Assembly: GCF_014280175.1 (NCBI RefSeq)
Contig: NZ_CP047931.1
Span: 660,001-692,000 of the forward strand
From: Synechococcus sp. A15-28
Lineage (GTDB): Bacteria > Cyanobacteriota > Cyanobacteriia > PCC-6307 > Cyanobiaceae
Length of the DNA: 32,000 nucleotides
Direction: 5' to 3'
The translations under genes were made by a program, and so were the position numbers. The notes beneath the pieces were generated by a model. It made no database searches, had not been told where the DNA came from, and saw nothing but the letters and a program-made list of their open reading frames with translations. This document shows positions 3,524 through 29,773 of the stretch, in pieces; within the stretch, counting starts at the first letter, position 1, and every line of letters begins with the position of its first letter.

Positions 3524-3530
3524 CGAAGTA

Positions 3531-3938: not shown

Positions 3939-3974
3939 GGGATGGGTTGATGGGAGTGCCCATGATGCGCTGCA

Positions 3975-6099: not shown

Positions 6100-7458
6100 T
6101 CAGGATTGTTTCACAGGCCGAACGGTGAGCACCTGCGGAGGGGTGGCATCGGCCGGGTAGATCAGTCGAATCCGTACATCTCGCGCTTCGCCAGGTTTGA
6201 GCGTGACCTGACCGAGGGATGCTCCCTCCTGTCCCTGGCGAAGCACCAGATGCACGGTCTGGCGTCCGTAGGGGCTGCCATCGGCGTCATCAAGGCCAAC
6301 CACCTCAACCGGTCCACGGAACATCACGGGCCCCGAAAGGCTGCTGCGGAACCGCAGGGCATCGGAGGCTTGATCCGTTTTCAAGGGGGATTCGAGGGCC
6401 AGACTCAGGGTCTGCGCTGCTGCACCACTGTTTTTGAGTGGCAGGGTCAGGTCGTATTCGACCCCGTAGTTCCCATGGGCGGCCCAGGCTGTGCCGGGAT
6501 ACAGCGCCTGCAGTTCTGCCGTCTGCACCTGCCCTGTTCCCAAACTGCCGCGCTCGAGGCTGCTGATCGGCCAGGACACAGGCTCGTTCTGAATCGACAG
6601 GGTTGTGCTGCCGGGGTCCGTAATGCGGGTCTGCCATCGGCTGCCGATCTGGACACCGCTGACGCGGGAATAAATGATCTTCCCCTTGCTCCCGCGAGGG
6701 GTGGGGTTGTGTTCTTTTCCACTGAGCTCGCCGCTGCTGAGCAGGTCGATCAAGTCCTGAACGTTCGGCGCTTGATGGCCGTCACCATGGGCCGCAAGGG
6801 TGGCCAGGGCCACTGGTGCGGAGCTGTGAAGACGCAGTTGAAGATTGCGGCCATTCAGCAGGGGGTCGAGCCCCTGCACCGGGATGGGCAGCTGCAGCAC
6901 AACCGTTGGGGAACCGGGCTTGAGGGTCCAGCGTCGTGGCGACAGTTCCTGAGCTTCTCGTCCCTTCAGCAGGTCTCCCGCAACCCGGCTGCCAGGACCA
7001 GCGGCAATCACGTCATTGGTTTCCCGCATCAGCGGAGGCAGCGGCAGAAACGGAGCCGCGGTCTGGCCAGGTTCGGTGGCCTGGGACAGGGAGGTGCTTC
7101 CTTCGATCAGCGTGAGCGTGACATCTTCATCGCCGATGGGTGCCATCAGCAGGGCCAGCCACAGGGTGGAGTCGAGGGTCTCATCCGTGCCTGCATAGAC
7201 GTGATGGCTGAACAGATCGAAGCGGCCGCTCAGGTCCACGGAGATCGATGCATCCCCACCATCGGGAAACGTGGAAAGGAGGATGCCGTCCTCCTTGATC
7301 AGCTCCGGGTTGTTGTCGTTCACCATCAGCACGGCGTCCAATTGCCCTGGCAGCGACCGGACGCTCTGTTGCCGTTGGATGACGTCGGCGATGGCAGAAG
7401 GGGCCACACCTGCGGTGAGGCCGGCGATGACGGCACCAAGAAGAACGAGCGATCTCAT
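6100..7458 (-). CDS. conserved secreted cyanobacterial protein of unknown function (possibly the DUF3370 family, from memory only)
   Basis: 452 aa with signal peptide MRSLVLLGAVIAGLTAGVAPSAIA. Its ATG forms an ATGA overlap with the upstream gene's stop (7455..7458). The nearly co-extensive + ORF 6106..7479 is judged a shadow. Confidence 0.8.
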   Translation of the reverse strand: MRSLVLLGAVIAGLTAGVAPSAIADVIQRQQSVRSLPGQLDAVLMVNDNNPELIKEDGILLSTFPDGGDASISVDLSGRFDLFSHHVYAGTDETLDSTLWLALLMAPIGDEDVTLTLIEGSTSLSQATEPGQTAAPFLPLPPLMRETNDVIAAGPGSRVAGDLLKGREAQELSPRRWTLKPGSPTVVLQLPIPVQGLDPLLNGRNLQLRLHSSAPVALATLAAHGDGHQAPNVQDLIDLLSSGELSGKEHNPTPRGSKGKIIYSRVSGVQIGSRWQTRITDPGSTTLSIQNEPVSWPISSLERGSLGTGQVQTAELQALYPGTAWAAHGNYGVEYDLTLPLKNSGAAAQTLSLALESPLKTDQASDALRFRSSLSGPVMFRGPVEVVGLDDADGSPYGRQTVHLVLRQGQEGASLGQVTLKPGEARDVRIRLIYPADATPPQVLTVRPVKQS

Positions 7459-8543
7459 GGTGTGGACTGCTGGGGTTGAGAGGCGGTTCGGCGCGGTGGA
7501 GCCGCTTCCGGCTTGAGGTGGGGGGCCATGGCTGCTGCCATGGCACGGATCAGATTGGTGGACCTTGGGTCGTTGAACGGACCCTTCACCAGAAAACCCG
7601 CCACGGCGCGGCGACCATCGGGCAGTTCGATCAAGCCGGCATCGGCATAGGCGATGCCGATGTCGCCGGTCTTGTTGTAAACGCGATAACCCTTGCTGGC
7701 CAGGCTGGAATCGGGGGCGCCCTGGGCGCCGCCAAGACCTTTCATCAATCCCGTCGGCAGAAGCGTGTTGGTGACGGAGGTCGCCATGACCTCACGGAAT
7801 AAATCACGGCTGCGCAGGCTGAGGGTTTCACCGGTGTCGACCAGGGCGATGCTGCGACTGAGGTCGTAGGCACTCGTGGTGTTGGTGCCGTCCAGATCAG
7901 GCAGCCAGTTGTTGACTTCGGTGGCCATCAGACCGAGGTCCTGGAAGAGCTGATTGATGGTCTGCTGCCCCCCCACCCGCTCGATCAGAAGATTGGTGGC
8001 GGAGTTGTCGCTGACGCGAATCATTTCCGTGGCGGCGACTCGGGCAGGGAAACGGCTTCCGAGCGGTCGAGATGCCATCCACCCCGCGCCTCCCCCAACG
8101 AGTTCCTTCGTCAGCAGAAGTGGTTCATTCCAGTGCAGATCGCCAGCGTCAATCCGTTGCAGTGCGGTCAGCAGAATCGGTGTTTTGATGGAACTGGCCG
8201 CTGGCATCGGTCGATCGGCGTTCATCTGGGCGAAGCGGCCGTCGTCGAGGAGCAGCATGTAGGCGCTGGCCTCAAGATCCTTCTGTGTGGCCGCGATGGC
8301 GCGCCATCGGGCGGAGAGCTCGGGGATTTCTCGGGTCGGCTCGAAACGACCCACAACTGGCTTTCGGATTGACTCAGGCTTGTCCTGAGTTGGCTTCTCA
8401 ACGGCAGCAGTTTCAAATGGCTGCAGCCAGTCCGGCAGGTTGAGGGTCTGGCGTTGAACCTGCGGGGCGAACCAGCGCAGTGCTGACCCCGTCAGCACGC
8501 CCAGACCAATCCCCAGCACCATCAACCGCAGGAGGCGACGCAC
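7455..8543 (-). CDS. class A beta-lactamase-like serine hydrolase / penicillin-binding-type protein, membrane anchored
   Basis: Carries the S-x-x-K (ASSIKT), SDN (VSDNSATN) and KTG (NKTGDIG) motif triad. The track ORF extends to 8867, but that extension is R/P/S-rich and overlaps the TrmJ-like gene. I place the start at GTG 8543 (VRRLLRLMVLGIGLGVL signal anchor), or alternatively ATG 8522. Confidence 0.85.
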   Translation of the reverse strand: MRRLLRLMVLGIGLGVLTGSALRWFAPQVQRQTLNLPDWLQPFETAAVEKPTQDKPESIRKPVVGRFEPTREIPELSARWRAIAATQKDLEASAYMLLLDDGRFAQMNADRPMPAASSIKTPILLTALQRIDAGDLHWNEPLLLTKELVGGGAGWMASRPLGSRFPARVAATEMIRVSDNSATNLLIERVGGQQTINQLFQDLGLMATEVNNWLPDLDGTNTTSAYDLSRSIALVDTGETLSLRSRDLFREVMATSVTNTLLPTGLMKGLGGAQGAPDSSLASKGYRVYNKTGDIGIAYADAGLIELPDGRRAVAGFLVKGPFNDPRSTNLIRAMAAAMAPHLKPEAAPPRRTASQPQQSTP

Positions 8544-8620
8544 CGGAGATCCCCATCCAGGAGAACGACGAGAGGGACGGCTGCTGCTCAAGCGCGTCGT
8601 GCACTGTGACTCGCGTGAGG

Positions 8621-9337
8621 CTAGGGGCGGTCGGCGCGGATGGCCCAGCGAAGTTGCCGCACCATGCCTCGGAACAAAGCGACCTCCTCCGCTCTGCAGG
8701 TCGCGCGTTGCAAGAGATCCCGGACCTTGCCCATGCGCGCTGCACGGGTGTGGGGCAGTAGGAAGCCAGCCTCCAGGAGCAGCTCTGCGGCATCGTCCAA
8801 CAGCCCGGTCAGCTGAGGTGCCGGTGCAGGTGCAGGATCTTTGCTGCGGGAGGGGCGAGCTTGCCATTGATGCCGGGCCAGGTCGTGAAGGACCACGGCG
8901 ACGGCGTGGGAGAGATTGAGCGAGGGATAGGCCTCCTGGCTGTGCAGCGTCAGAACCCGCTGGCAGAGTCTGAGTTCATCGTTGGTGAGGCCGCGGTCTT
9001 CCCGCCCAAAAATCAGGGCGTAAGGGGGATCTCCCGACAGCATCCAGTCGATGGCGGTGTCTGGGTTCTGCAGCGGTATGCCTCCATGGTCCAACCGGCC
9101 GCAGGTGGCGATCACACGCCTGCAATCCCCGATGGCGGACTGCAAATCAGGGTGAATGGTGGCCTGTCGCAGAAGAGGGGCCGCATGGACGGCCATCCGG
9201 AGAGCGTCATCACAGAGAACCTCGCAGCGGGGATTGACCAACCGCAGTGAGTGAACACCGAAATTGGCGCAGAGCCTTGCCACACTGCCGATGTTCAGTG
9301 GCCCGGCAGGCTCGACCAGGACTATGGCGACGGTCAA
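8621..9337 (-). CDS. SpoU/TrmH-family RNA 2'-O-methyltransferase (TrmJ-like)
   Basis: 238 aa. IVLVEPAGPLNIGSVARLCANFGV..LRLVNPRC is a typical TrmH group-1 N-terminus, followed by IFGREDRGLTNDEL. The TTG start forms a TTGA overlap with the cytM stop. Confidence 0.88.
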   Translation of the reverse strand: MTVAIVLVEPAGPLNIGSVARLCANFGVHSLRLVNPRCEVLCDDALRMAVHAAPLLRQATIHPDLQSAIGDCRRVIATCGRLDHGGIPLQNPDTAIDWMLSGDPPYALIFGREDRGLTNDELRLCQRVLTLHSQEAYPSLNLSHAVAVVLHDLARHQWQARPSRSKDPAPAPAPQLTGLLDDAAELLLEAGFLLPHTRAARMGKVRDLLQRATCRAEEVALFRGMVRQLRWAIRADRP

Positions 9338-13310: not shown

Positions 13311-13346
13311 ATCCAGAAATTTGACCTGGAGCTTATCGGAGGTTTT

Positions 13347-13397
13347 CGGCCTTGATTCCTTCTCGGAGATAAACTGAAGGCCGGTGGTTTTTCGTTT
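13347..13397 (+). promoter_or_regulatory. terminator-like stem-loop plus U-run immediately 5' of the gyrA start codon
   Basis: cggcctt (13347..13353) pairs with aaggccg (13377..13383), a 7-bp stem with a 23-nt loop. It is followed by gtggtttttcgtttgt and then ATG at 13400. Confidence 0.35.
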
Positions 13398-13399
13398 GT

Positions 13400-16012
13400 A
13401 TGGCGGATTCTGTGGGACCAGGAGGCGGCGGTCCCGGCGATTCCGACGATCGAATCATTCAGGCGGATCTTCGCAACGAGATGTCGCGCTCCTACCTGGA
13501 GTATGCGATGAGCGTGATCGTGGGACGGGCCCTGCCCGATGCCCGCGACGGTCTCAAGCCGGTGCATCGCCGCATCCTTTACGCCATGTACGAGTTGGGG
13601 CTGACAAGCGATCGCCCCTACAGGAAATGTGCCCGTGTTGTGGGCGAAGTGCTTGGCAAATATCACCCCCATGGTGATACCGCCGTGTACGACGCCCTGG
13701 TGCGCATGGCCCAGGACTTCTCCATGTCGATGCCCTTGATCGACGGGCACGGCAACTTCGGGTCGGTGGACAACGATCCGCCGGCGGCCATGCGTTACAC
13801 GGAGTCCCGGTTGCAGGCGCTGACCACCGACAGCCTGCTGGAGGACATCGAGGCGGAGACCGTTGACTTCGCCGACAACTTCGACGGGTCTCAGCAGGAA
13901 CCAACGGTGCTTCCGGCTCGGATTCCTCAGCTGCTGCTGAATGGTTCAGCCGGCATCGCCGTCGGGATGGCGACGAACATCCCGCCCCACAACCTCAACG
14001 AGCTGATCAGTGGCCTGCTGGCGCTGATCGAGAACCCCGACATCACGGATCAGGAGTTGATCCGGCTGATCCCTGGCCCCGACTTCCCCACTGGAGGACA
14101 GGTCCTGGGCCGTGACGGGATCCGCGAAACCTATCTGGGGGGGCGTGGCTCCATCACCATGCGTGGGGTGGCGGCGATTGAAACGATCGAAGCCCCCGGT
14201 CGCCCGGACCGCGATGCGGTGATCATCACGGAGTTGCCCTATCAGACCAACAAAGCAGCGCTGATTGAGCGGATCGCAGAGCTGGTCAACGACAAGAAGC
14301 TGGAGGGCATCTCGGACATCCGCGATGAGAGCGATCGCGATGGCATGCGGATCGTGGTGGAGCTGCGCCGTGATGCCTACCCGCAGGTGGTGCTGAACAA
14401 TCTGTTCAAGCTCACGTCGCTGCAGAGCAACTTCAGTGCCTACATGTTGGCGCTGGTCAACGGTGAGCCGATCCTGCTCACCCTGCGCAAGATGCTCGAG
14501 GTGTTTCTCGACTTCCGTGTCGAGACGATTGAGCGCCGCACCCGCTACCTGCTGCGCAAGGCCGAAGAACGCGATCACATCCTCCTCGGCCTGCTTCTAG
14601 CGCTGGATCAGTTGGATCCGATCATTGCCCTGATCAGAGCAGCCCCCGATACGGCGACGGCCCGCCAGCAGCTGCAGGATCGTCATGGCCTCAGCGACAT
14701 CCAGGCTGACGCCATCCTGCAGATGCAGCTACGGCGTCTCACAGCGCTGGAGGCCGACAAGATCCGGCTTGAGCACGAGGATCTGGTCACCAAAATTGCG
14801 GATTACAAGGACATCCTCGGCCGGCGTGAACGGGTGTTCGGGATCATTCAGGACGAACTCAACCAACTCAGCGAGCGCTACACAACACCGCGTCGTACAG
14901 AGATTCTCGATCTCGGGGGTGGGCTTGAAGACATCGATCTGATCGCCAACGAGCGTTCCGTGGTTCTGGTCACCGAAACCGGCTACCTGAAACGGATGCC
15001 CGTGAGTGAGTTTGAGGCCACCAGCCGAGGCACCCGTGGCAAAGCCGGCACCCGCAGCCAGGGGGAGGAAGCCGTGAAGCTGTTCATCAGCTGCAACGAC
15101 CACGACACCCTGCTGCTGTTCAGTGACCGTGGTGTGTCCTATGCCCTGCCGGCTTACCGGGTGCCGCAGTGCAGCCGGACGGCCAAGGGCACGCCGGTGG
15201 TGCAGTTGCTGCCCATTCCGAGAGAGGAGGCGATCACATCGCTGCTTGCCGTGTCGGAGTTCAACGACGACATGGACCTGTTGATGCTGACCAGCGGCGG
15301 GTTCATCAAGCGCACCCGTCTTTCTGCCTTCAGCAACATCCGCTCCAATGGCCTGATCGCCATCAACCTGGAAGAGGGCGATGCGTTGAGCTGGGTTCGT
15401 CTGGCGGTGCCAGGCGACAGCGTGCTGATCGGATCCAATGCGGGGATGACCATTCACTTCCGCCTCAGTGATGAGGAACTGCGTCCCCTGGGCCGCACGG
15501 CTCGCGGCGTACGCGCAATGAATCTGCGCAATGGAGATGCCCTGGTGAGCATGGATGTGCTCCCGGTGGAGCTGGCGGATCGGATCGCCCAGAGCGCAGA
15601 GGATGAGGAGGAGGAGGACGACGATGCCTCATCCGGCGATGGCCCATGGGTGCTGGTGGCCTCGGCGTCCGGTCTGGGCAAACGCGTGCCGGTGACCCAG
15701 TTCCGTCTGCAGAAGCGTGCCGGCATGGGCCTGCGGGCGATGAAGTTCCGCACGCAGGACGATGCACTTGTCGGTCTGCGGGTGCTCGGTGCTGGTGAGG
15801 AGGTGCTGTTGGTCAGCGAGAAAGGGGTGATCGTGCGCACCAGTGCTGATGCCATACCCCAGCAGTCGAGGGCTGCAACGGGGGTGCGTCTGCAGCGACT
15901 GGATAAAGGCGATCGTCTGTCGGAAGTGGTTCTGGTACCGCCGGAGGCGGACGATGAATCTGCTGATGACAGCTCCTCTGACAACACAGAAGCTGACGCG
16001 CAGGACAGCTGA
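13400..16012 (+). CDS. gyrA: DNA gyrase subunit A
   Basis: 870 aa. [35 protein letters not shown], active-site region AAMRYTE, GyrA-box-type C-terminal beta-pinwheel repeats and an acidic C-terminal tail. Confidence 0.97.
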
Positions 16013-21399: not shown

Positions 21400-21645
21400 A
21401 TGTCGCTGACACAACTCGATCAGTTCCTGTCGCTTCGTGAGTCGAATCCGCTTCTGGCGGAGCGGCTTGCTTCACCGCTTGACCTGGAGGATTTTCTGCA
21501 ACTTGCCGGGGAGTGGGGATTTCAATTGACGGAAGCTGACGTGCTGGATGCCCAGAAGAGGGCCATGGAGCAGGGCAGTGCATCGGCTCTGCAACAGGCT
21601 CAGGCCGAGGAATTCCGACGGCTGCGCAACTTCATTCATGGATGA
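21400..21645 (+). CDS. Nif11-family small protein (Nif11-like leader-type N-terminal domain)
   Basis: 81 aa. MSLTQLDQFLSLRESNPLLAERLASPLDLEDFLQLAGEWGFQLTEADVL matches the Nif11 N-terminal domain pattern (MS..QL..FL......L...L.......LA.E.GF.....D). The C-terminal 30 aa are helical and charged, with no GG/GA cleavage motif and no Cys. Confidence 0.8.
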   Translation: MSLTQLDQFLSLRESNPLLAERLASPLDLEDFLQLAGEWGFQLTEADVLDAQKRAMEQGSASALQQAQAEEFRRLRNFIHG

Positions 21646-22699: not shown

Positions 22700-23032
22700 A
22701 TGAGACTCATAGGAATGAAGCCTGTGGGGTCCTGGCTCAGCGTTGATCTTTGTGTCGTTCCTCTTGGGGTCGGGGTGAGCTTGTCCCCGTACATTGCGAC
22801 CTGTCAGCGGGTGATCGAGTCGTCCGGGCTCGTTCATGAGTTAGGTCCCAACGGCACGGCGATCGAGGGGCCCTGGGATGACGTCATGGACTGCGTTCGG
22901 GCCTGTCACGACGCCATGCATGACATGGGAGTGCCACGCGTCTACACCACGTTGAAGTTGAACACCCGCATCGACCGGCATCAGGCCTTTCACGACAAGG
23001 TTGAGGCGGTCCGCCGTGAACTGAACTCCTGA
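22700..23032 (+). CDS. UPF0045 / MTH1187-YkoF-like small protein (thiamine-binding-fold family)
   Basis: LSVDLCVVPLGVGVSLSPYIATCQRVIESSGLVHELGPNGTAIEGPWDDVMDCVRACHD fits the MTH1187/YkoF pattern (..v.P.g.g.s.s.yva....v...sgl...l.p.gT.iEG.wdev). The start could be Met-6 at 22715. Confidence 0.8.
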   Translation: MRLIGMKPVGSWLSVDLCVVPLGVGVSLSPYIATCQRVIESSGLVHELGPNGTAIEGPWDDVMDCVRACHDAMHDMGVPRVYTTLKLNTRIDRHQAFHDKVEAVRRELNS

Positions 23033-23085
23033 AATCTTGAGAAGTTCAGTGCATCCCAACGTCTGGCGATGATCTGGCGAGACCA

Positions 23086-23613
23086 ATGAGACAAGGGCGA
23101 GGGGATTTGGTGCTCCAGAAGGGTCGACGTCCAGCCTTGTGGTTGCTGGCTCCGTTGCTCATCGCGCTGAGCTGGGAGGGGCTCCCGTCGCGGGCATCAA
23201 GCTGGGATCAGATCGGCTCCTATCTGCGGTTGATTCAGAAAACCGGTGTTGAGGCCCTGGTCGCCAATGATTGCCCGCAAGGTCTGCTGGGAGCTTTTCA
23301 TGAAGGGCGTCAGGCCCTGTTGATGTGTGGCAACAATCTGCCGGATGATCCCGCTTACATCTGGGTCGTCCTTGCCCATGAATCCGCCCACGTCATGCAG
23401 TTCTGCAAGGGCGGTCCACTGATGCCAGCAGCGGTTTTGGGCGCTGGCATGGATCAGACCCGTCGCGCCGATCCGCGCGCTTTTCATGAGTTGAACCTGT
23501 ATCACAGCAGTCAGCATCACGTGGAGGCTGAAGCGCGCCTCGTTCAGGCTCTCCCTCCGGATGAGGTGGAACACCTCTTCAGACAGCATTGTGCGGAGCG
23601 GCTCGAGCCCTGA
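23086..23613 (+). CDS. small secreted protein with HExxH zincin-like motif
   Basis: 175 aa. Signal-like N-terminus RRPALWLLAPLLIALSW and the motif VVLAHESAHVMQFC (HExxHxxQ). Confidence 0.65.
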   Translation: MRQGRGDLVLQKGRRPALWLLAPLLIALSWEGLPSRASSWDQIGSYLRLIQKTGVEALVANDCPQGLLGAFHEGRQALLMCGNNLPDDPAYIWVVLAHESAHVMQFCKGGPLMPAAVLGAGMDQTRRADPRAFHELNLYHSSQHHVEAEARLVQALPPDEVEHLFRQHCAERLEP

Positions 23614-24232
23614 GGATCCGACGATTCTTTATGGGGACCCCTGGTTGCTGGTGGTGCTGAAACCGTCGGGATTGCTGTCGCAACCCGGCCGCGGCGATCA
23701 CCTGCAGGATTCCCTGATCACGAGGCTGCAGAGGTTGCGTGGGGAGCACCATCTGGTGCATCGGCTTGATCGAGACACCTCGGGCGTGGTGCTGGTCGCC
23801 CGGTGTCTGGACAGTCTCCGTCGCTGCAGTGCCCTCTTTGCCGCTCGACGCGTGAACAAGCTCTACGAAGCAGAAGTGGAGGGGCAGCTGCATGGTCGAG
23901 GCCGGATTGATTCGCGTTTGGCTCGCTTGGATCGAGATCCACCTCGGTATGGCGATCACCCCCAGGGACGACCCTCGACAACGTTATGGCGAGTGCGCGC
24001 CAGACAAGAGGACTCGACAAAACTCTGGCTGCGGCCTTTGACAGGGCGATCGCATCAGCTGCGAGCCCACCTGGCTGGCATTGGTCATCCGATTCTGGGA
24101 GACCCGATTTACGGTGAAGGGTCAATGACGCCGTTGCGATTGCACGCCAGGGCCCTGGGTTTTCAACACCCGTTCACGGGGCGCCGGCTGCGTGTGTTCA
24201 CTCGACAGGACGATGACAACCATGCCGGCTGA
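23561..24232 (+). CDS. RluA-family pseudouridine synthase
   Basis: LLVVLKPSGLLSQPG...HLVHRLDRDTSGVVLVAR (catalytic Asp motif HRLDxxTSG) and ...GRSHQLRAHLA.IGHPILGD.IYG. The start is ATG 23561 or GTG 23591. Either way it overlaps the 3' end of the preceding gene. Confidence 0.88.
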   Translation: MRWNTSSDSIVRSGSSPEDPTILYGDPWLLVVLKPSGLLSQPGRGDHLQDSLITRLQRLRGEHHLVHRLDRDTSGVVLVARCLDSLRRCSALFAARRVNKLYEAEVEGQLHGRGRIDSRLARLDRDPPRYGDHPQGRPSTTLWRVRARQEDSTKLWLRPLTGRSHQLRAHLAGIGHPILGDPIYGEGSMTPLRLHARALGFQHPFTGRRLRVFTRQDDDNHAG

Positions 24233-24488
24233 ATCTCTGGGTTATGCAGCTGCCTTTCTCACCACCATCAGTTTTTTCCCGCAGGCCGTGAAGACCCTCC
24301 GCAGCGGTGACACCCGTTCAATCTCTCTCGGTATGTACGCCCTGTTCACGGCTGGGGTGGCCCTGTGGTCGCTGTACGGCTGGATCGTCGGCGATGGCCC
24401 GGTGCTGATCGCCAATCTGATCACTCTGGTTCCGGCGACGGTTGTCTTGCAGCGCAAGATGGCTGCGGGAGTGCATTCTTCGGGGTGA
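24222..24488 (+). CDS. SemiSWEET / PQ-loop (MtN3-like) three-helix sugar transporter
   Basis: 88 aa from Met MPAESLGY. Three TM helices, with the PQ motif in helix 1 (AAAFLTTISFFPQAVKTLRSGDTRSISLGMY). The track ORF begins at 24192 inside rluA. Confidence 0.8.
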   Translation: MPAESLGYAAAFLTTISFFPQAVKTLRSGDTRSISLGMYALFTAGVALWSLYGWIVGDGPVLIANLITLVPATVVLQRKMAAGVHSSG

Positions 24489-24512
24489 CCGCAAATCCTT
24501 CATTTAGAGAAT

Positions 24513-27500
24513 GTGCAGAAACATGGTTTCGCTGAAGCTGATGGTGAAGCCATTCTCAGTGCCATGAACGCGATGCTCCTCGCGTCTGAAATGCCAGCAC
24601 ATCCCGATGATCCAACGCTCCAAAGTGAGCACATGGCTGCGATGGATCTGGCCAAACCGGAAGAAGCCACGCATGTCGCGACGGCCTCAGGAGATTGGTC
24701 CTCTGCCTCAACATGGCAGGGTGGGCGCATTCCTGATCAGGGCAGTCGGGTTCTGATCCCCGAAGCTCATTCGGTCACTCTGGATCGTGAACTGGCCTCG
24801 GAGCTTGAATGGCTTCGGCTGAATGGTGAGCTGCGCTTCGCAACTGATCGGGATACGGAATTAAGGGTCGACACGCTGGTCAGTGCCCCTGGTAGTCGAC
24901 TAGAGATCGGCACGGCGGAACAACCGGTTCAGTCGAATGTGCAAGCGCGGATCGTGTTCGCCGATCGTGGGCCTCTGACTGTTGAGAACGACCCGTTGCT
25001 AATGGGCCGTGGAGCGATTCTTCATGGCACCACGCGGATCCACGGTGCGGCAAAAACCTCTGCTGTGACCGCAGCAATAGATCTGAAACGAGGTGATCGG
25101 GAGATTGTTCTGACCGACCAACCGGAGGGTTGGTCGGTGGGGGATCAGCTGGTCATCGCTGGAACCCGTCCCGATGGTGGTGGGGATGAAACCGTCGTTA
25201 TTCAGTCCATTGAAGGGTCTCGCATTCTTTTGGAAGCCCCGTTAACCGAGGACCACCTCACTCCGCGGGATCACCTGAAGGTTCATGTGGCCAACCTCAG
25301 CCGCAATGTGGAATTCACCTCTGAGAACACAGCCATTGATCGTCGCGGTCACGTGATGTTCATGCATACCAGAGATGTGGATGTGGCGAATGCTGCGTTC
25401 AATGATCTGGGCCGCACCGACAAGCTTCGACCATTGGATAGTCCATATTTTGATGATGAAGGCTTCTTCGTGGAAGAGACTGGTAGTAATACAGGTGGCC
25501 GTTATTCTGTTCATTTTCACCGTAATGGTGTTGAGCGGAGTGGCTCTCCTGCTGTCATCCGTGGCAGTGTTGTAGCCGGCAATCCTGGCTGGGGGTTTGT
25601 CAACCATTCCAGTTATGTCGATTTCATCGACAATGTTGCCTTTGATGTGGTGGGTGCAGCTTTCAGCACCGAAGCTGGAGATGAGATCGGTCGTTTTCAG
25701 GACAACCTTGCCATTCGAATGCTTGGCACTGGTGATGAGCCCATCAGTCGACAGGAGGATGGCGATTTCGGCCATGCAGGTGATGGTTTCTGGCTGCAAG
25801 GGCCCGGGGTCGTCGTTGAAAACAATGTGGCTGCTGGGGCTACAGGAAGTGGCTTGATCCTCTATGCCGAACCATTGTTTGAAGATGGCTTGGGTATCAC
25901 GACCTTCCCTTCAGGCAATCTTCCTGATCCATTCGTTGCTGAGGGGGATGCGTCAGTGCCAGTTTCTTTGGCTCCCTTGGCTCGGTTCAGTGACAACGAA
26001 AGTTATGGTTCAGCTTTGGGAGCTCAGATTTATTACCACCGTACATTCATCACGATTGAGGAAGAACAGGAGGAACAGGCTCGATTTCAGTTTGCTCCGA
26101 GTGTGATGGATGGTATGAGTCTTTGGAGTAATAGTAACGGAATGCAGGTTAATTACACGGTTGACACTGATTTCCGCGATTTTGAAATCATTGGACCGGC
26201 TGATGGCTCTGGCGATACCGGCTTTGACGCTGCTTCAAACTTTTATAACCGCGGAACTCATCATTATGAAAACTTTGTCATTGAGGATTATGAGATTGGT
26301 TTCTCGGCTCCTCGTAGTGGTGTGATTCATGTCCGCAATGGTTATTTCAATAACATCACGGATTTTTATTTGAATGAGCCAAGGCAGCTGGGTCGCAGGA
26401 TGCGCTTCGAAGGTGATATCCAGTTTGGTGATCGTGCCAGTGGTGTTGTTGAGGGAGAGGTGGTGCCAAGGTCTTATTTTGAAATGGATCCTGAGCTTGC
26501 CCCTGCCGCGGATTCAGCGAACGAGCATTTCTTGCTGGATGATCAGGTTATTCTTGACTTCGGACCTTTTCAGGATCAGCAACTCTATTTCTATGAGCAG
26601 TTAGCGGATCATGTGCTTTTCCCTGAGTTGCCGGAGCAGCTGACTCCCGATGATCCTGGGCCAACGATTGGGGATGAGTTTGTTGGCGTAACCAATGCGG
26701 AGATTGCATCTGTGTTGGGTGAGTCGTTTGGGGGCGCCATGGTTCCAGATGATGCGCGAGAGGTGGATCGGATCCTGGGACTCGTTGGCTCGCCTGCGGC
26801 TGATCTTCCTGAGCTCAATCCCAACCCTCTCCCATTGGATGATGAAGAGGAAGACGATTTAGATGAGGACGAAGAAGAGGAAGAAGAGGAGATCGAGGAA
26901 GAGGAGAATGATTTGGAGGAAGATGAAGAGGGAATTGATGAAGAGGAGGATGATTTAGAGGAAGATGAAGAGGGAATTGAGGAAGACGTGGATGAGATTG
27001 ATGATCCCATCGACGAGCCGGAGGGTTCTGAGCTTGAGATCGGACTGTCTGAACAGGGAGGCAACCTTCGCCTCAGGCTCAGAAGTGATGAATTGATCGA
27101 GCGTTCTGATGACGTGGTGCGAACCCCCGTTGAGGGTTTTGATGCAATTTCTCTGTTCAGCTCCAATTTTTCCGAGAAAGTTAAATTCAAGTTTGATCCC
27201 CGTCTCGCATCATCTCCTGATGTTGTCAACTTATTCGCGGCAAGGGGGGGTGACCGAATTCAGATTGTTCAAAAGAATCAAGGCGGACCTGACTTGTTGG
27301 CGATTCATGGCCAACAAGGGCGTGATCGCCTCGATGCCAGCAAATTCGCTGGAGAGGTTGAACTGGATGGTGGACCTGGTCGAGATCTTCTGATCGGTGG
27401 ACGTTCGCGAAGTGAACTTTGGGGTGGTTCAGGCGCTGATACGTTTGATCTCAGTCGTGAATCTTCTGGTGTTCAGTGGATCATGGATTTTGATCCTGAT

Positions 27501-27650
27501 ATAGATCAACTTCGCTTGGATCAAACCGTTGGTGCTTACGAGATCGACGTTCGCGGAGATGATCTCTGGCTTCTGAGTGGTGAGCGAGCCGTGGCCGTTT
27601 TTGACGGCTTTGTTGATCAACAGGACACTCTTCAACTCTTGATCAGTTAG
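24513..27650 (+). CDS. large secreted protein: G8 domain + right-handed parallel beta-helix + polyacidic linker + RTX repeats with type-I-secretion C-terminal domain
   Basis: 1045 aa with a GTG start and no N-terminal signal peptide.
- G8-like block, about 24669..25040: ATHVATASGDWSSASTWQGGRIPDQGSRVLIPEAHSVTLD...LRLNGELRF...LVSAPGSRLEIGT.
- Beta-helix-like repeats follow, including GRYSVHFHR near 25495..25525.
- A 65-residue tract, 75% D/E, at 26838..27032.
- Three consecutive GGxGxD-type nonapeptides at 27369..27449: GGPGRDLLI, GGRSRSELW, GGSGADTFD.
- Then IMDFDPDIDQLRLD, which resembles a T1SS C-terminal target domain. Confidence 0.85.
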   Translation: MQKHGFAEADGEAILSAMNAMLLASEMPAHPDDPTLQSEHMAAMDLAKPEEATHVATASGDWSSASTWQGGRIPDQGSRVLIPEAHSVTLDRELASELEWLRLNGELRFATDRDTELRVDTLVSAPGSRLEIGTAEQPVQSNVQARIVFADRGPLTVENDPLLMGRGAILHGTTRIHGAAKTSAVTAAIDLKRGDREIVLTDQPEGWSVGDQLVIAGTRPDGGGDETVVIQSIEGSRILLEAPLTEDHLTPRDHLKVHVANLSRNVEFTSENTAIDRRGHVMFMHTRDVDVANAAFNDLGRTDKLRPLDSPYFDDEGFFVEETGSNTGGRYSVHFHRNGVERSGSPAVIRGSVVAGNPGWGFVNHSSYVDFIDNVAFDVVGAAFSTEAGDEIGRFQDNLAIRMLGTGDEPISRQEDGDFGHAGDGFWLQGPGVVVENNVAAGATGSGLILYAEPLFEDGLGITTFPSGNLPDPFVAEGDASVPVSLAPLARFSDNESYGSALGAQIYYHRTFITIEEEQEEQARFQFAPSVMDGMSLWSNSNGMQVNYTVDTDFRDFEIIGPADGSGDTGFDAASNFYNRGTHHYENFVIEDYEIGFSAPRSGVIHVRNGYFNNITDFYLNEPRQLGRRMRFEGDIQFGDRASGVVEGEVVPRSYFEMDPELAPAADSANEHFLLDDQVILDFGPFQDQQLYFYEQLADHVLFPELPEQLTPDDPGPTIGDEFVGVTNAEIASVLGESFGGAMVPDDAREVDRILGLVGSPAADLPELNPNPLPLDDEEEDDLDEDEEEEEEEIEEEENDLEEDEEGIDEEEDDLEEDEEGIEEDVDEIDDPIDEPEGSELEIGLSEQGGNLRLRLRSDELIERSDDVVRTPVEGFDAISLFSSNFSEKVKFKFDPRLASSPDVVNLFAARGGDRIQIVQKNQGGPDLLAIHGQQGRDRLDASKFAGEVELDGGPGRDLLIGGRSRSELWGGSGADTFDLSRESSGVQWIMDFDPDIDQLRLDQTVGAYEIDVRGDDLWLLSGERAVAVFDGFVDQQDTLQLLIS
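26856..26993 (+). repeat. in-frame tandem repeat inside the polyacidic linker (two 42-nt units plus a degenerate upstream unit)
   Basis: Unit 26910..26951 versus unit 26952..26993: 38/42 identical by hand alignment, including a 23-nt perfect run. They encode DLEEDEEGIDEEED and DLEEDEEGIEEDVD. A degenerate related unit begins at 26856 (gatttagatgaggac...). Confidence 0.85.
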
Positions 27651-27670
27651 GTGATGCGCTGATCCTTGAA

Positions 27671-29773
27671 TCAGGCCGATTGTCGAGGTCTGGCGGGAAT
27701 GGGATAGGGAATGCGGCGGTGTCTCATCCGCCGCCAAACCTTCACAAATGCCTGGACGACAAGTTCAACCTCAGAACGCGATAGTCCGCTTTTGCGAAGT
27801 TGCCCATCCTGTTGACGAGACTCCACGATGCGACGCACGGTGTCCTTCGCTTCATCGTCTGAGGTGTCGGGTGGTAATGAGCGCAAAGCCGCCTCGCAAC
27901 CATCGGCCAGCATCAGGATTCCTGTTTCCTTGGAACGGGGTGATGGGCCGTGATAGCGAAAGCGTCTCTCCTGCACCTTGGGATTTCTCTGACGGGCTTT
28001 GTGCAGAAAAAAGCCCATCTTCAAGGTCCCTTGGTGCTCCGGAATGAAATCTGCAATCGGCCGAGGCAGGCGGTGGCGTTTTGCCAGTTTCAGTCCTTCA
28101 TCCACGTGGGCCTGTAGAACAGCCGCGCTCTGTTCAGGATCGTTAAGAGCGTCATGGGGATTCGGACCGTCTTTTTGGTTTTCGATGAACCAGTCCGGGG
28201 CATGAAGTTTGCCGACATCGTGATACAAAGAGCCTGTTCGAATCAGATCGACATCAGCATTGATGGCACGAGCTCCTTCCTCGGCAAGGCCACAGATCAT
28301 CAATGTGTGCTCAAAGGTGCCAGGAGCTTCACAGGACAAGCGTCGCAGCAGAGGTCGCTCCTGGTCTGCCAATTCAAGTAATCGTGCACGGGTCAGCAAG
28401 CCGAAGGATCCTTCCAGCAGGGGAATCATCAACAGCGACAGCATCAGCAGCAGACCCAACAGCAGCGCATCTGTGCTCAGTTCATCGAGTCCTGGATTCA
28501 AGGAGCCCCACAGCCTCCACCCCGTCCATGGTTGGAGCTGGAGCAGCACCCATTGAGACACCAGGGCGCCCAGTGGCAACAGAACAGCGAGCTGAAGCAA
28601 CTGACCCCGACTGCGCTGACGACCAGCGATGACTCCTCCTGTTGTGGCGACAGCGACAGCGATCAACAGACGCCCATCACCCAGTCCATTGGCAGGCAGA
28701 GGCCAGATCAGGGCTGTGATCGCCATCCAGACCAGGCCACAGCCCGTTCCCAGTCCTTCGGTCAGGATCAGAGTGGGTGGCACCAACACCGCTAAGGGAC
28801 TGACCGTGGATTGGAACCAGAGCTTGGCCACCTGAGCCAGCAGCAGGAGTCCTAGGGCCAGCAACCCATGGCGGACTTCAAGCCCGGGACGCTCTCGTCG
28901 CATCACCAAGAGCATCACGCCGCAGGCAGCGAGGGCTTCGAGAAAACGACCCAGCCAGATCAACGGCTGGGGTTCGCGCTTCACTTTTCCGAAAAAGTCA
29001 AGAACGTCGTAGGCCTGAGGGCTGATCGGCTCCCCCTTTCGTGTAATGAGATCTCCCTTCCGCACATCGATGGTGGGGATCCCCTGTTTGGTCAGCTGTT
29101 CTTCAATCAGCTGTTTGCTGAGGATGGGGTCGGTGCGCAGGTTGCTGCTTCCCTGCAGGCTGCTTGCCAGGAGCTTGCCGGCCAGGGAACGGGCCGCAGG
29201 GTTGTCGATGACGTCACCCTGCAGTTGAAGACTGGCGGCTTGACGGAATTGATCCACCGCAAGGGTGCTTACCAGTCCCTGGCTGAGCATGCGGTTCGCG
29301 GCCTTCCTGACAACGTTGTCCCAGGCGAGATGCTCTTCATGGCTGCGTTGCTCCAGCCAGACCTGTTCATCCGCACTGAGATTGACCGGACCGACCCTGG
29401 CCGCTGACCCGCTCTCGCTCACCTGTTGGAGTTCGCTGAGCTGACGTTCCAGTCTCAGCTTGAGTGCCTGCGTCTGCTCCTGGTCAAGCACTTGAACGAC
29501 GGAGCGTGCCACCAGGGTGGAGCGGCGTTGCTCCAGAGCTGTGCTGTCCTGCACCAGGGCATCCTTGGGTGCGATGGCGTTAAAGGGGGCCAGCGCACCC
29601 GGCTGGAGATCAGGTTTCAGCAGCCATGGAAGGCTGGAAGCTCCGGCAACCATCAGGCAGAGCAACAGCACAAAGCTGGATTGCAGTGCAGTCCAACGGA
29701 GCAGGCGCCCAGCCGGACCCTGATGACGCAGCCAGCGTCTCCATAACTTGCTCACGCCGTTGAAGCGAACCAA
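27671..29773 (-). CDS. 7TM receptor with intracellular HD/HDIG phosphohydrolase domain (7TMR-HD family)
   Basis: 700 aa. N-terminal anchor and extracellular domain, a central block of about seven hydrophobic helices, and a C-terminal HD domain (EHTLMICGLAEE...GSLYHDVGKL...EHQGT). Confidence 0.88.
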   Translation of the reverse strand: MVRFNGVSKLWRRWLRHQGPAGRLLRWTALQSSFVLLLCLMVAGASSLPWLLKPDLQPGALAPFNAIAPKDALVQDSTALEQRRSTLVARSVVQVLDQEQTQALKLRLERQLSELQQVSESGSAARVGPVNLSADEQVWLEQRSHEEHLAWDNVVRKAANRMLSQGLVSTLAVDQFRQAASLQLQGDVIDNPAARSLAGKLLASSLQGSSNLRTDPILSKQLIEEQLTKQGIPTIDVRKGDLITRKGEPISPQAYDVLDFFGKVKREPQPLIWLGRFLEALAACGVMLLVMRRERPGLEVRHGLLALGLLLLAQVAKLWFQSTVSPLAVLVPPTLILTEGLGTGCGLVWMAITALIWPLPANGLGDGRLLIAVAVATTGGVIAGRQRSRGQLLQLAVLLPLGALVSQWVLLQLQPWTGWRLWGSLNPGLDELSTDALLLGLLLMLSLLMIPLLEGSFGLLTRARLLELADQERPLLRRLSCEAPGTFEHTLMICGLAEEGARAINADVDLIRTGSLYHDVGKLHAPDWFIENQKDGPNPHDALNDPEQSAAVLQAHVDEGLKLAKRHRLPRPIADFIPEHQGTLKMGFFLHKARQRNPKVQERRFRYHGPSPRSKETGILMLADGCEAALRSLPPDTSDDEAKDTVRRIVESRQQDGQLRKSGLSRSEVELVVQAFVKVWRRMRHRRIPYPIPARPRQSA

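Follow-up and report, generated by a model that had tools for sequence, protein, structure and literature searches.

A G8/CEMIP-type beta-helix protein with a C-terminal RTX-type module, encoded at a variable junction in marine Synechococcus

The AlgE1-7 proteins of Azotobacter vinelandii are mannuronan C5-epimerases that combine a beta-helix A-module with RTX R-modules and are secreted by a type I secretion system (T1SS). The rhizobial PlyA/PlyB and ExsH/EglC proteins are RTX glycanases that trim the producer's acidic exopolysaccharide at the cell surface, with the T1SS encoded elsewhere; the catalytic domains of ExsH and EglC are of the GH16 type. The crystal structure of animal TMEM2 showed that its G8 domain forms part of a beta-helix (PMC10206443). 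Its hyaluronidase activity is disputed (PMC10206443 versus PMC10474455): Niu et al. did not find activity in their structure paper and could not assign an active site (PMC10206443), and Ca2+ is reportedly required for activity (PMC10474455). The literature searched contained no work on G8 proteins of bacteria or cyanobacteria and no characterised bacterial member, in agreement with an earlier note, made from the sequence alone, that knew of no described function for this architecture in cyanobacteria.

Here, we analysed a G8 gene of Synechococcus sp. A15-28, a marine clade III strain, within a 32-kb window (the whole stretch of DNA under study). Its product (QNI41807.1 / WP_186587732.1) is already named in RefSeq and GenBank, as "G8 domain-containing protein" and "hemolysin-type calcium-binding repeat family protein", and the bacterial family is already annotated. 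The start codon is ambiguous, with GenBank using GTG (1045 aa) and RefSeq using M18 at 24564 (1028 aa). The ORF, whose disruption the earlier note had named as a refuting point, is intact, and the four parts read in it (G8, beta-helix, acidic spacer and RTX tail) were all recovered with the motifs as written.

The N-terminus and beta-helix core

24513-27650, + strand: whole ORF, GTG start, TAG stop, 1045 aa
24513-24599, + strand: N-terminal leader, aa 1-29, conserved in close relatives only; aa 1-25 predicted disordered
24600-24710, + strand: aa 30-66, conserved segment near the N-terminus (HP..P.L..EH.AA..L...ATH), modelled as helical
24711-25070, + strand: G8 region, aa 67-186, PF10162 match, first coils of the beta-helix
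25071-26807, + strand: aa 187-765, rest of the core, a right-handed parallel beta-helix, from Pfam, model and Foldseek
25347-25367, + strand: GHVMFMH, aa 279-285, with GH.M.M common to human TMEM2
25494-25529, + strand: GGRYSVHFHRNG, aa 328-339, with GRY.VHFH common to TMEM2
25590-25838, + strand: other polar residues that are invariant, placed on successive coils, from the alignment and TMEM2 comparison

In the Pfam scan, PF10162 matched the G8 region at aa 67-186 (E=3e-15, 56.7 bits, cut-off 22.9), as the earlier note had anticipated, and CEMIP_beta-hel PF24606 matched aa 321-450 (25473-25862; E=3.7e-10, 40.4 bits, cut-off 27.3). The expected beta-helix was thus recognised by the CEMIP-specific model and not by the generic Beta_helix PF13229, and aa 486-766 scanned alone matched no Pfam family. 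The AF2 model was confident (pLDDT 90.9), and its strands run on without a break from the G8 region into the beta-helix. The modelled core is a single right-handed parallel beta-helix of ~700 aa with the G8 region as its first coils. The G8-type block (DWSSASTWQGGRIPDQGSRVLIPEAHSVTLD...LEIGT) described earlier was therefore present, but its description as a separate N-terminal module did not stand, the region being part of the beta-helix in both the TMEM2 crystal structure and our model. In homologs that bear a signal peptide, the mature protein begins at the counterpart of aa 30-66, a segment in which H30 and H40 are nearly invariant.

An alignment of 110 sequences from several phyla contained 38 invariant columns, many of them H, E, D, R, N, W or Y. 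These include G279, H280, M282, M284 and H285 of GHVMFMH, R330, Y331, H334 and H336 of GGRYSVHFHRNG, and W360, H365, E387, G389, E391, N398, D418 and N438 further on; H248 is nearly invariant, as are F426 and W427, both at 90% or more. Because the invariant residues are spaced ~25-30 residues apart, on what would be successive coils, they form a candidate substrate groove or metal site.

In the Foldseek comparison proposed in the earlier note, the TMEM2 ectodomain ranked first (E=1.3e-14), followed by phage capsule depolymerases and K1 lyase and then by GH110, GH87, GH28 and AlgE4, while the viral library returned tailspikes and depolymerases. In addition, a profile of the G8 family matched TMEM2 8c6i (E=2.3e-8); the alignment includes the GRY.VHFH block, and GH.M.M, GRY.VHFH, H, E..G.E and FW...N.AAG line up, which in the A15-28 protein places H365, E387, E391, FW427 and N438.AAG against TMEM2. 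Since Pfam, the family profile and Foldseek agree, these results support true homology between the A15-28 protein and the G8 and beta-helix core of CEMIP/TMEM2, a relation first suggested by the G-R-Y-x-x-HFH block of the former.

The core family comprises 1,685 clusters at E<=1e-30, mostly in Planctomycetota-type heterotrophs. Given this size and the frequency of extra modules (RTX, dockerin, esterase, T9SS) on its members, the architecture is not unusual. RTX repeats occur in ~47 of the best 120 homologs, and all 31 sampled homologs matched both G8 and CEMIP_beta-hel. Homologs are also fused to SGNH esterase, carboxyl/feruloyl esterase, GH43, dockerin and T9SS tails, partners that link the family to carbohydrate.

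The acidic linker, RTX-type module and export

26838-27032, + strand: linker of 65 aa (aa 776-840) with 75.4% D/E, poly-acidic and predicted disordered
27033-27647, + strand: C-terminal all-beta RTX-type module, aa 841-1045, isolated model pLDDT 90
27309-27449, + strand: RTX nonapeptide block, aa 933-979 (GQQGRDRLD ... GGPGRDLLI GGRSRSELW GGSGADTFD)
27486-27518, + strand: DFDPDIDQLRL, aa 992-1002, aligning with the serralysin DF.xG.D.LDLS motif
27612-27647, + strand: extreme C-terminus VDQQDTLQLLIS, amphipathic helix at aa 1034-1044 in the model

The linker has exactly the length and acidity first reported (65 residues, 75% Asp/Glu). In-frame length differences between wild alleles occur only here, and the length of the linker in orthologs ranges from 0 to ~90 aa. 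The RTX-type module is kept at the extreme C-terminus in all picocyanobacterial orthologs. The nonapeptides and DF-x-x-x-x-D-x-L-x-L tail of the earlier reading were both located: two repeats are canonical (GGPGRDLLI at 953, GGSGADTFD at 971) and two are degenerate (GQQGRDRLD at 933, GGRSRSELW at 962), and the tail is DFDPDIDQLRL. Of the two models that had been suggested for this region, HemolysinCabind PF00353 matched aa 952-979 barely above its cut-off in the full-length scan (E=6.4e-05, 23.3 bits versus 23), reaching 28.4 bits with the C-terminal module scanned alone, and TIGR03661 did not match. DFDPDIDQLRL also aligns with a RefSeq 'type I secretion C-terminal target domain' protein, and the repeats and C-terminal cap align to that protein, serralysin, PrtC and AlgE R-modules. 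Furthermore, Foldseek with the isolated C-terminal model returned RTX rolls of T1SS substrates alone, as weak matches (E ~1e-2, TM ~0.37-0.42). These results support a C-terminal RTX beta-roll module whose sequence and fold neighbours are only RTX domains of known T1SS substrates, and the terminal helix is a candidate uncleaved secretion signal.

A crude hydropathy test showed no hydrophobic segment of Sec type at the N-terminus, and no T1SS ABC, MFP or TolC genes were found among the large ORFs of the window; on both the signal peptide and the exporter genes the earlier note had said the same. Likewise, T1SS genes were not found next to the six heterotroph homologs whose surroundings were inspected. 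Among 21 non-cyanobacterial homologs with a Sec-type signal, 20 have no RTX, and 29 of 32 picocyanobacterial homologs have RTX and no signal. In clade III strain WH 8102, three ABC exporters of the HlyB type and one HlyD protein are encoded away from the RTX genes (Linhartova 2010 Table S2). Judged from its sequence, T1SS export of the A15-28 protein is plausible.

Candidate function and evolution of the gene

We lean, with moderate confidence, towards the reading that the product of the ORF is a functional G8/CEMIP-type beta-helix protein, exported and stabilised by Ca2+, that most likely acts on acidic extracellular or cell-surface polysaccharide. A HlyB/HlyD/TolC-type type I system, with its genes at another place in the genome, would carry the very acidic, Cys-free chain (pI 4.16, 0 Cys), which has no Sec signal, out of the cell in an unfolded state and with the C-terminus leading. 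The RTX roll would fold on meeting Ca2+ in seawater and would drive and cap folding of the helix, and the acidic linker would act as a spacer between the catalytic helix and either the RTX module or the cell surface. A groove of R330, Y331, H334, H336, H365, E387, E391, D418, N438 and W427 would bind a glycan and cleave or modify it, possibly as a hydrolase, lyase or epimerase. Glycan-depolymerase activity is plausible; it is not simply transferable from the animal proteins, because TMEM2 activity is disputed and all activity-killing CEMIP/TMEM2 mutations map to the GG/lectin (GG-1) domain, which, like the other GG/lectin parts, is absent from the A15-28 protein.

We consider it rather unlikely that the protein works at the surface without catalysis, as a Ca2+-anchored adhesin, an S-layer-associated protein or a glycan-binding beta-helix, with RTX as its tether to the outer membrane and a helix that only binds ligand. 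Beta-helices are common passenger and adhesin folds, and Foldseek did include antigen 43 and PfbA, but these adhesin matches were at E=5e-3 or weaker compared with 1e-9 for depolymerases. RTX S-layer proteins such as clade III SwmA are acidic and Cys-free (Linhartova 2010); however, the strain has neither swmA nor swmB. The G8 domain was first predicted to be ligand-binding (PMC12423501), and no TMEM2 activity was found in the structure paper of Niu et al. (PMC10206443), but ~38 invariant, mostly polar or charged columns across phyla would be rare for adhesins, and the modules fused to family members are enzymatic (esterases, GH43) or dockerins.

That the beta-helix is a metalloenzyme or handles metal, and does not act on glycans, appears distinctly improbable; the His cluster would then be a NosD-like Cu, Zn or Ni site, to which the His-rich N-termini of mature homologs would also belong. 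H280, H285, H334, H336 and H365 are invariant, H30, H40 and H248 are nearly so, and His-rich N-termini follow signal peptides in homologs, but histidines are also common as catalytic or carboxylate-binding residues of lyases and hydrolases, and the strong fold neighbours are all carbohydrate-active enzymes. Weak matches to NosD PF05048 were seen in few homologs (1 of 31 in the alignment scan) and not in the A15-28 protein, and metal-trafficking genes were not found nearby.

23561-24232, + strand: rluA, left anchor of the variable junction
24192-24488, + strand: SemiSWEET (PQ-loop) gene, upstream and co-directional, 25 nt before the G8 start
27671-29773, - strand: 7TMR-HD receptor/phosphohydrolase gene, right anchor of the variable junction, convergent with the G8 gene

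The picocyanobacterial G8 gene occupies one fixed junction, rluA/SemiSWEET versus 7TMR-HD. Presence/absence mapping at this point, as first proposed, revealed a polymorphism exactly there: the gene is present at 7 of 34 resolvable wild loci and missing from the other 27, whose junctions are clean. The presence of SemiSWEET in wild loci is independent of it. Loci L053 and L054, with flanks that are 98-99% identical, are set apart by a 3-kb indel. All eight near-identical wild alleles are full-length and intact, with indels only in multiples of 3 and only in the linker, and dN/dS is 0.27-0.34 (~0.3) in the six more divergent of them; the three divergent orthologs examined (62-67% identity) are full-length and syntenic. 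The gene is intact under purifying selection. One SAG copy, L001, has a stop codon and a frameshift. L004 and L009 were rejected as disrupted copies, as their apparent breaks are scaffold N-gaps. Near-identical wild sequences form clusters of 39-117 members in several lineages.

GC3 of the G8 gene is 0.48-0.52 versus 0.58-0.77 in the flanks, the gene evolves faster than most neighbours, and the picocyanobacterial clade is nested within the heterotroph radiation in NJ trees, which carry no support values. No conserved carbohydrate-utilisation neighbourhood was found. The gene is flexible and was probably acquired horizontally, and its donor may have been a heterotroph lineage of Planctomycetota type. 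Since acquisition it has been inherited at the one fixed junction, and the presence/absence pattern shows retention in some Synechococcus lineages and deletion in others, which argues for a niche-dependent accessory trait and not core physiology. This flexible status and the polymorphism at the junction are new relative to the earlier sequence reading. Expendable horizontally acquired cargo without a current role, slowly decaying at a recombination-prone junction, would suit the clean absences, the recent indel between near-identical genomes, the anomalous GC3, the faster evolution and the L001 copy, but is very unlikely in view of the full-length alleles (8/8) and orthologs (3/3), the dN/dS, the linker-only indels, the retained catalytic-type invariant residues, the merely apparent L004 and L009 breaks and the wild clusters.

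Comparison with known systems

The preferred reading, an exported beta-helix protein acting on polysaccharide, can be set beside several known systems. CEMIP (KIAA1199/HYBID) and TMEM2 (CEMIP2, 8C6I) have a core homologous to the A15-28 core in sequence and fold; TMEM2 shares GH.M.M, GRY.VHFH, H365, E387..G..E391, FW and N.AAG with it, although identity in the structural alignment is only ~12%. The GG-1 lectin-like insert of TMEM2 (chain residues ~166-334) has no counterpart in the A15-28 protein, which has an acidic linker and RTX module in place of the GG-2 C-terminal domain and TM anchor and also lacks the signal peptide. Hyaluronan would be an unexpected substrate in the open ocean.

RefSeq 'G8 domain-containing proteins' (Planctomycetota, Verrucomicrobiota, Chloroflexota and Pseudomonadota MAGs) have the same ~730-aa core at 37-65% identity, with identical invariant residues and, frequently, an acidic linker after an LDPNPLP motif. 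In contrast to them, members of the picocyanobacterial clade end in a conserved 205-aa module of their own that contains only 2-4 RTX repeats, lack the LExLExRxLL motif or Sec N-terminus, and show an abnormally low GC3 relative to the host, which six heterotroph copies do not.

Serralysin Peptidase_M10_C and 'type I secretion C-terminal target domain' proteins share RTX and a DF..G.D.L.L cap with the A15-28 protein (44% identity over 55 columns, hhalign probability 97%; phmmer against serralysins, E=1.6e-5). However, neither TIGR03661 nor PF08548 of such tails matched the A15-28 protein itself, and it differs from them in ~95 residues of degenerate beta-roll upstream and in a family-specific extreme C-terminus (..DTLQLLIS). 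AlgE1-7 likewise place a beta-helix module of carbohydrate-active type before Ca2+-binding RTX without a signal peptide, and AlgE4 A-/R-modules and AlgE6 R-modules were among the fold and sequence matches, weakly (E ~1e-2), but the AlgE beta-helix belongs to a different family and its catalytic DPH(D/E) motif is missing here. Although the catalytic domains of PlyA/PlyB and ExsH/EglC are unrelated to the A15-28 core and the likeness is confined to the RTX segment (a weak match to EglC, NCBIfam NF052454), these rhizobial proteins provide a precedent for an RTX-tagged enzyme exported by an unlinked T1SS.

Domain architecture and fold of the G8 protein

The ORF listing of the window gave a single ORF for the G8 gene, and every motif that the earlier note had quoted from it was found at its place. 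The features of the protein are as follows.

Features of the G8 gene and its protein (aa, residues of the 1045-aa protein; cut-off, gathering score)
24513..27650 (+): G8 gene, GTG start, 1045 aa
G8 protein: WSSASTWQGG...LEIGT block, found by motif search
aa 67-186: G8 (PF10162), model positions 1-121 of 124, E=3e-15, 56.7 bits (cut-off 22.9)
aa 321-450: CEMIP_beta-hel (PF24606), E=3.7e-10, 40.4 bits (cut-off 27.3)
aa 328-339: GGRYSVHFHRNG
aa 776-840: acidic run of exactly 65 residues, 75.4% Asp/Glu
aa 933-979: RTX nonapeptides, two canonical and two degenerate (GGxGxDxUx-type)
aa 952-979: HemolysinCabind (PF00353), E=6.4e-05, 23.3 bits (cut-off 23)
aa 992-1002: DFDPDIDQLRL tail

The Pfam models named in the earlier note for G8 and for the RTX repeats were both matched above their cut-offs, and scanning the C-terminal 208 aa by themselves raised the HemolysinCabind score to 28.4 bits. 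CEMIP_beta-hel was also matched by 31 of 31 sampled homologs. The Pfam scan of the G8 protein returned nothing beyond G8, CEMIP_beta-hel and RTX, and no CAZy-type Pfam family. The domain-level reading of the earlier note is correct, and the observation behind it is real.

An AlphaFold2 model built from 110 homologs had a mean pLDDT of 90.9, with disorder confined to aa 1-25 and aa 788-837. The model starts with two short helices and continues with an unbroken run of short strands that extends from about aa 54 to about aa 760; the disordered acidic linker follows, and then an all-beta C-terminal domain that closes with a helix. When the PDB was searched with Foldseek, the ectodomain of TMEM2 (8c6i) ranked first (E=1.3e-14), followed at about 1e-9 by phage capsule depolymerases and the K1 capsule lyase and then by GH110, GH87, GH28 and the A-module of AlgE4. 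The named depolymerase-type matches (K1 lyase 7w1c, K64-1 S2-4, LKA1 gp49, GH110, GH87 and GH28) had E-values from 1e-9 to 4e-3, and matches in the viral fold library (BFVD) were generic tailspikes and depolymerases. By both the model and the Foldseek matches, the protein has the right-handed parallel beta-helix fold of polysaccharide depolymerases (GH28/GH87/GH110, PL1/PL6 and phage tailspikes). Furthermore, a profile of 31 homologs matched TMEM2 8c6i in the PDB at E=2.3e-8 and aligned GH.M.M (aa 279-284), GRY.VHFH (aa 329-336), H365, E387..G..E391, FW (aa 426-427) and N.AAG (aa 438-442) with the animal protein. The beta-helix core is homologous to that of CEMIP/TMEM2 by structure and by sequence profile, which bears out the relationship that the earlier note had proposed.

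However, the G8 protein is not of the CEMIP/TMEM2 type in the strict sense, because it has neither the GG domains nor a signal peptide or transmembrane anchor. Residues ~166-334 of the TMEM2 chain (the lectin-like domain GG-1) were skipped in the profile alignment and have no counterpart in the G8 protein; the C-terminal GG-2 has no equivalent either, the C-terminus being RTX; and in place of the signal peptide or type II transmembrane anchor of the animal proteins there is no hydrophobic N-terminal segment. In addition, "G8" in the TMEM2 structure is the opening stretch of the beta-helix (Niu et al. 2023, PMC10206443), so the G8 match at the N-terminus stands but the separate module that the earlier note had made of it does not. 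All reported activity-abolishing substitutions in TMEM2/CEMIP fall in GG-1, and in the same study the active site of TMEM2 was unassignable and its activity undetected (Niu et al. 2023, PMC10206443); this is contradicted by a report of robust Ca2+-dependent activity (Narita et al., PMC10474455). Since the domain carrying the activity-abolishing substitutions is absent and the activity of TMEM2 is disputed, the animal precedent is a lead and not a transferable function.

The bacterial G8 family and the RTX module

By its sequence matches, the G8 protein belongs to Pfam G8 plus CEMIP_beta-hel and to the bacterial "G8 domain-containing protein" family. A word-indexed search returned 667 matches, and an exhaustive phmmer search of 1.84 billion representatives with the core (aa 30-765) returned 4,826 proteins with E<=1e-3, of which 1,685 had E<=1e-30; at 50% identity the family comprises 1,685 clusters or more. 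The named members all come from MAGs, of Planctomycetota (Pirellulales, Fuerstiella), Verrucomicrobiota, Chloroflexota and Pseudomonadota. The protein itself is entered in GenBank as QNI41807.1 (1045 aa, "hemolysin-type calcium-binding repeat family protein") and in RefSeq as WP_186587732.1 (1028 aa from M18, "G8 domain-containing protein"), so that both halves of the title of the earlier note were already in public annotation; the architecture being common and annotated, the surprise is modest. Full-text literature searches for G8 proteins of bacteria or cyanobacteria yielded no relevant paper, in agreement with the earlier statement that no function had been described for this architecture in cyanobacteria. 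Two strains of clade III are without swmA and swmB, A15-28 being one of them (Dore et al. 2020, PMC7522525), and the supplements of that study do not mention the G8 gene.

Across the family the ~730-aa core is constant and the ends are variable. Among the 120 best hits, about 47 carried RTX repeats, six a dockerin, four an SGNH esterase, three a carboxyl/feruloyl-type esterase, and one each a GH43 domain and a T9SS tail. An alignment of 110 sequences contained 38 invariant columns, many of them polar (D160, D211, R264, N265, H280, H285, R301, K304, R330, Y331, H334, H336, W360, H365, E387, E391, N398, D418 and N438). From aa 334 on, the invariants recur every 25-30 residues, about one helix coil, and we read them as a putative line along one face of the helix. 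The case for an enzyme that works on complex glycans is built chiefly on this degree of conservation and on the carbohydrate esterases, GH43 and dockerins to which homologs are fused. The same evidence has to be set against two other readings. A non-catalytic, Ca2+-anchored surface or binding protein would accommodate the RTX repeats and is unlikely given the conserved polar residues; a His-based metalloprotein unrelated to glycans would accommodate the invariant histidines and, with carbohydrate-active enzymes as the strong fold neighbours, is improbable. The glycan-active enzyme is the reading that we prefer.

A poly-acidic linker following a conserved LDPNPLP motif is found family-wide and is hypervariable, ranging from 0 to ~90 aa in picocyanobacteria and reaching hundreds of residues in some planctomycete-type homologs. 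It is present regardless of the type of C-terminal module and is thus a spacer and not part of a T1SS signal. In many planctomycete-type homologs (P0033-P0117) an LE.LE.R.LL motif stands at the start in place of a Sec signal, and long RTX arrays are often N-terminal to the G8 core; in homologs with a signal peptide, the mature N-termini are His-rich, e.g. GHGHHKALPHPNDPVL. A conserved T1SS or carbohydrate operon around the distant homologs was rejected, since neither T1SS nor carbohydrate-utilisation genes lay beside them in the six heterotroph loci examined or in the further locus L002. ECF-type sigma factor genes were present beside or near the G8 gene in three of the six heterotroph loci (L019, 15123-15725; L021, 9275-9838; L060, 2759-3352); one locus also has FecR and a TonB-dependent-receptor-like gene, and one locus has an upstream peroxidase-NPCBM gene.

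The last ~205 aa form the extreme C-terminus in every picocyanobacterial ortholog and are kept at 39-95% identity (27% in the most divergent protein, P0036). In sequence, this module matched only RTX segments (serralysin, PrtC, alkaline protease, AlgE R-modules, RTX hemolysin, ZapA, EglC and PueAB), and the serralysin RTX blocks matched the G8 protein at E=1.6e-5. Modelled alone, it had a pLDDT of 90.1, and its fold neighbours were almost exclusively RTX rolls of proven T1SS substrates, with weak scores (E ~1e-2, TM 0.37-0.42). By hhalign, GGPGRD...DFDPDIDQLRL aligned with a RefSeq 'type I secretion C-terminal target domain-containing protein' at a probability of 97% and 44% identity over 55 columns. 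TIGR03661, which the earlier note had put forward as a check, gave no match at E<=10; the RTX repeats and the DF-type tail that it had described are both in place. Judged by its repeat content, the G8 protein is an RTX protein. The idea that the module serves as a movable export tag for other cargo of picocyanobacteria found no support, the strong profile matches being fragments of the same protein only.

The G8 protein has no Cys in 1045 aa and a pI of 4.16, and a crude hydropathy test found no Sec/Tat-like signal and no hydrophobic segment at its N-terminus, as the earlier note had stated. With a crude predictor, 20 of 21 non-cyanobacterial homologs with a Sec-type signal had fewer than two RTX repeats, and 29 of 32 picocyanobacterial proteins combined RTX repeats with no signal. 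No ABC exporter, MFP or TolC was found among the large ORFs of the window, again as noted before. In WH 8102 (clade III), three HlyB-type ABC exporters and one HlyD are unlinked to the nine RTX genes (Linhartova et al., PMC3034196, Table S2); in this group it is therefore nothing unusual for the transporter to be encoded elsewhere. We infer that the G8 protein is exported by T1SS.

The junction in wild populations and the origin of the gene

The neighbours of the G8 gene are those recognized earlier: rluA and a PQ-loop/SemiSWEET gene upstream, and the 7TMR-HD gene (27671..29773, -) convergent with it. At 23086-24488 a co-directional 175-aa ORF overlaps rluA by 53 nt and rluA overlaps SemiSWEET by 41 nt, and the G8 gene starts 25 nt past SemiSWEET; these tight co-directional overlaps and the short gap suggest one transcription unit. 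A consensus scan for promoters and terminators found no sigma-70-like promoter at window positions 23000-28000. Two other parts of the window were recorded:

21400-21645: 81-aa Nif11-domain ORF (PF07862, E=3.4e-12), conserved in all related loci, among small, partly unannotated ORFs between ABC permease and thiamine-binding-protein genes
6100-8867 (-): DUF3370 gene (E=7.6e-141) overlapping by 4 nt its neighbour, which encodes a 470-aa protein with a class A beta-lactamase-like domain

The Nif11 family includes leader-peptide-type proteins in picocyanobacteria, and the DUF3370 and beta-lactamase-like pair looks like a conserved cyanobacterial unit.

A look-up with the RluA sequence returned ten wild contigs, from Tara and further surveys, whose gene order is that of the window. 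Eight carried full-length alleles at 98.3-99.6% nucleotide identity, and dN/dS was 0.27-0.34 in the six more divergent of them. Length changes among the wild alleles were in-frame only and restricted to the acidic linker. The other two contigs (L004 and L009) have 100-N scaffold gaps, at 13321-13420 in each, inside the poly-acidic repeat; the pseudogene reading was rejected for them, because it is on account of these gaps that no gene is called. At such gaps gene callers skip the 3-kb gene and call spurious antisense ORFs, which can be misread as disruption. The gene is also intact between rluA(/SemiSWEET) and 7TMR-HD in three divergent lineages, whose proteins show 62-67% aa identity along their whole length. 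The gene is thus intact and under selection in wild populations. A 72%-identical copy in a single-cell genome (Synechococcus sp. AG-676-F02, L001) has an in-frame TAA at ~8351 and a frameshift at ~9586, where TTAAAGA is duplicated; the copy may be a genuine pseudogene, or the lesions may stem from faulty amplification or assembly.

To map presence and absence, we anchored metagenome contigs on the 7TMR-HD protein, which gave 38 loci, 34 of them resolving the junction. Seven of the 34 had the G8 gene, ten had SemiSWEET and rluA directly after the anchor, and 17 had rluA alone; the intergenic gaps were only 35-60 nt. In a tree of the 7TMR-HD backbone, the loci with G8 were concentrated in a single major clade and a further small group, and two other large clades wholly lacked it. 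In one pair of wild contigs, L053 (without G8, 1332-1390) and L054 (with G8, 1160-4187), the flanks are 98.8% and 97.8% identical and the difference is a 3.03-kb G8-bearing segment versus 59 nt, which is a recent indel polymorphism. A scan of genome contigs with the full protein found 3 loci only, the matches being dominated by low-complexity patterns (DEDEEEEE, IEEEQEEQ), and a contig look-up by exact sequence gave no match for the 1045-aa form. SemiSWEET (24192-24488 in the window) varied independently of G8 in the wild loci (L022-L059, and also L016): ten had SemiSWEET without G8, three (L023, L024 and L016) had G8 without SemiSWEET, and 17 had neither gene. Functional coupling of the two genes, with SemiSWEET importing released sugars, is thus unsupported.

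The GC3 of the G8 gene was 0.48-0.52 in four divergent Synechococcus lineages (the window, L014, L016 and L017), and that of every flanking gene was 0.58-0.77. In six heterotroph homologs, including the sister-clade copy (GC3 0.81), the GC content matched that of their own loci. In a neighbour-joining tree of the core (no support values), the picocyanobacterial proteins formed one clade whose sister was a small group with planctomycete-type N-termini, both nested inside the heterotroph radiation. The low GC3, the GC match in heterotrophs and this nesting indicate that the gene was probably acquired horizontally and was then inherited vertically at a fixed site and repeatedly lost. A decaying passenger of such a transfer, compatible with the absence of the gene from many junctions, is highly improbable beside the intact alleles and their dN/dS. 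A cyanophage origin found no support: among 50,697 phage records searched by tblastn, there were only two short matches to the G8 region, in unrelated phages (E=4e-10 and 1e-6, 26-31% identity), and the BFVD matches were generic tailspikes. Both tblastn matches are weak and lie in hypothetical proteins, one of Methanobacterium virus PhiF1 (MK994522.1, 24864-25475) and one of Curvibacter phage PCA1 (OP588919.1, 329-1006).

Predicted function and related secreted enzymes

We lean, with a little better than even confidence, towards the G8 protein being an exported, Ca2+-stabilised beta-helix enzyme active on glycans, most likely a depolymerase and less likely an epimerase or other modifying enzyme. 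It would be secreted C-terminus-first through an unlinked T1SS, its RTX roll would fold in seawater Ca2+, the acidic spacer would keep the roll apart from the helix, and a groove of conserved His/Tyr/Arg/Glu would act on acidic polysaccharide. The export route, the catalysis and the substrate are predictions; the strain's own exopolymer or capsule, or the exopolymers of neighbours, are speculative candidates, and a kps-like capsule cluster is shared by clades III and WPC1 (Dore et al. 2020, PMC7522525).

A wider reading joins these points, and we put it forward tentatively, as possible but doubtful. The bacterial G8/CEMIP-type helix would be the ancestral, self-sufficient catalytic core of animal CEMIP/TMEM2, with GRY.VHFH, H365 and E387/E391 in its groove; captured by horizontal transfer into some marine Synechococcus and exported by T1SS, it would cut the acidic exopolysaccharide or capsule of the producer (e.g. 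the kps-like capsule of clade III) or of its neighbours. If so, aggregation, sinking, phage access or sugar scavenging would be a strain-variable trait, an oligotrophic photoautotroph would possess an extracellular glycan depolymerase, and a simple bacterial model would be available for locating the active site of CEMIP/TMEM2, which is in dispute.

The family is large and widespread, lacks a functional study in the searchable literature and shares invariant polar residues with human TMEM2/CEMIP. There is dispute over the catalytic site and even the catalytic competence of the animal proteins, and a small bacterial member without GG domains offers an attractive way into their mechanism. In Synechococcus, the G8 gene is a trackable, flexible and probably horizontally acquired gene for a putatively exported protein: being cleanly present or absent at one fixed junction, it is easy to follow in metagenomes, and as a strain-variable gene with a probably exported product it is a candidate for differences in the chemistry of cell surface or exopolymer, in aggregation and export, in interactions with phages or grazers, or in mixotrophy.

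In architecture the G8 protein resembles the AlgE epimerases, which are T1SS-exported, RTX-tagged carbohydrate enzymes made of a beta-helix and RTX modules, and AlgE and EglC fragments were among its sequence and fold matches. However, the YG(F/I)DPH(D/E) motif of the AlgE A-module is absent, with no DPH, NPH or DP.H anywhere in the G8 protein; AlgE-like epimerase chemistry was rejected because this catalytic motif is missing, and the protein is not an AlgE-type epimerase. The rhizobial glycanases PlyA/PlyB and ExsH are likewise exported by T1SS with RTX tags and trim the producer's own EPS, and it is to such T1SS-exported, RTX-tagged carbohydrate enzymes that we liken the G8 protein.
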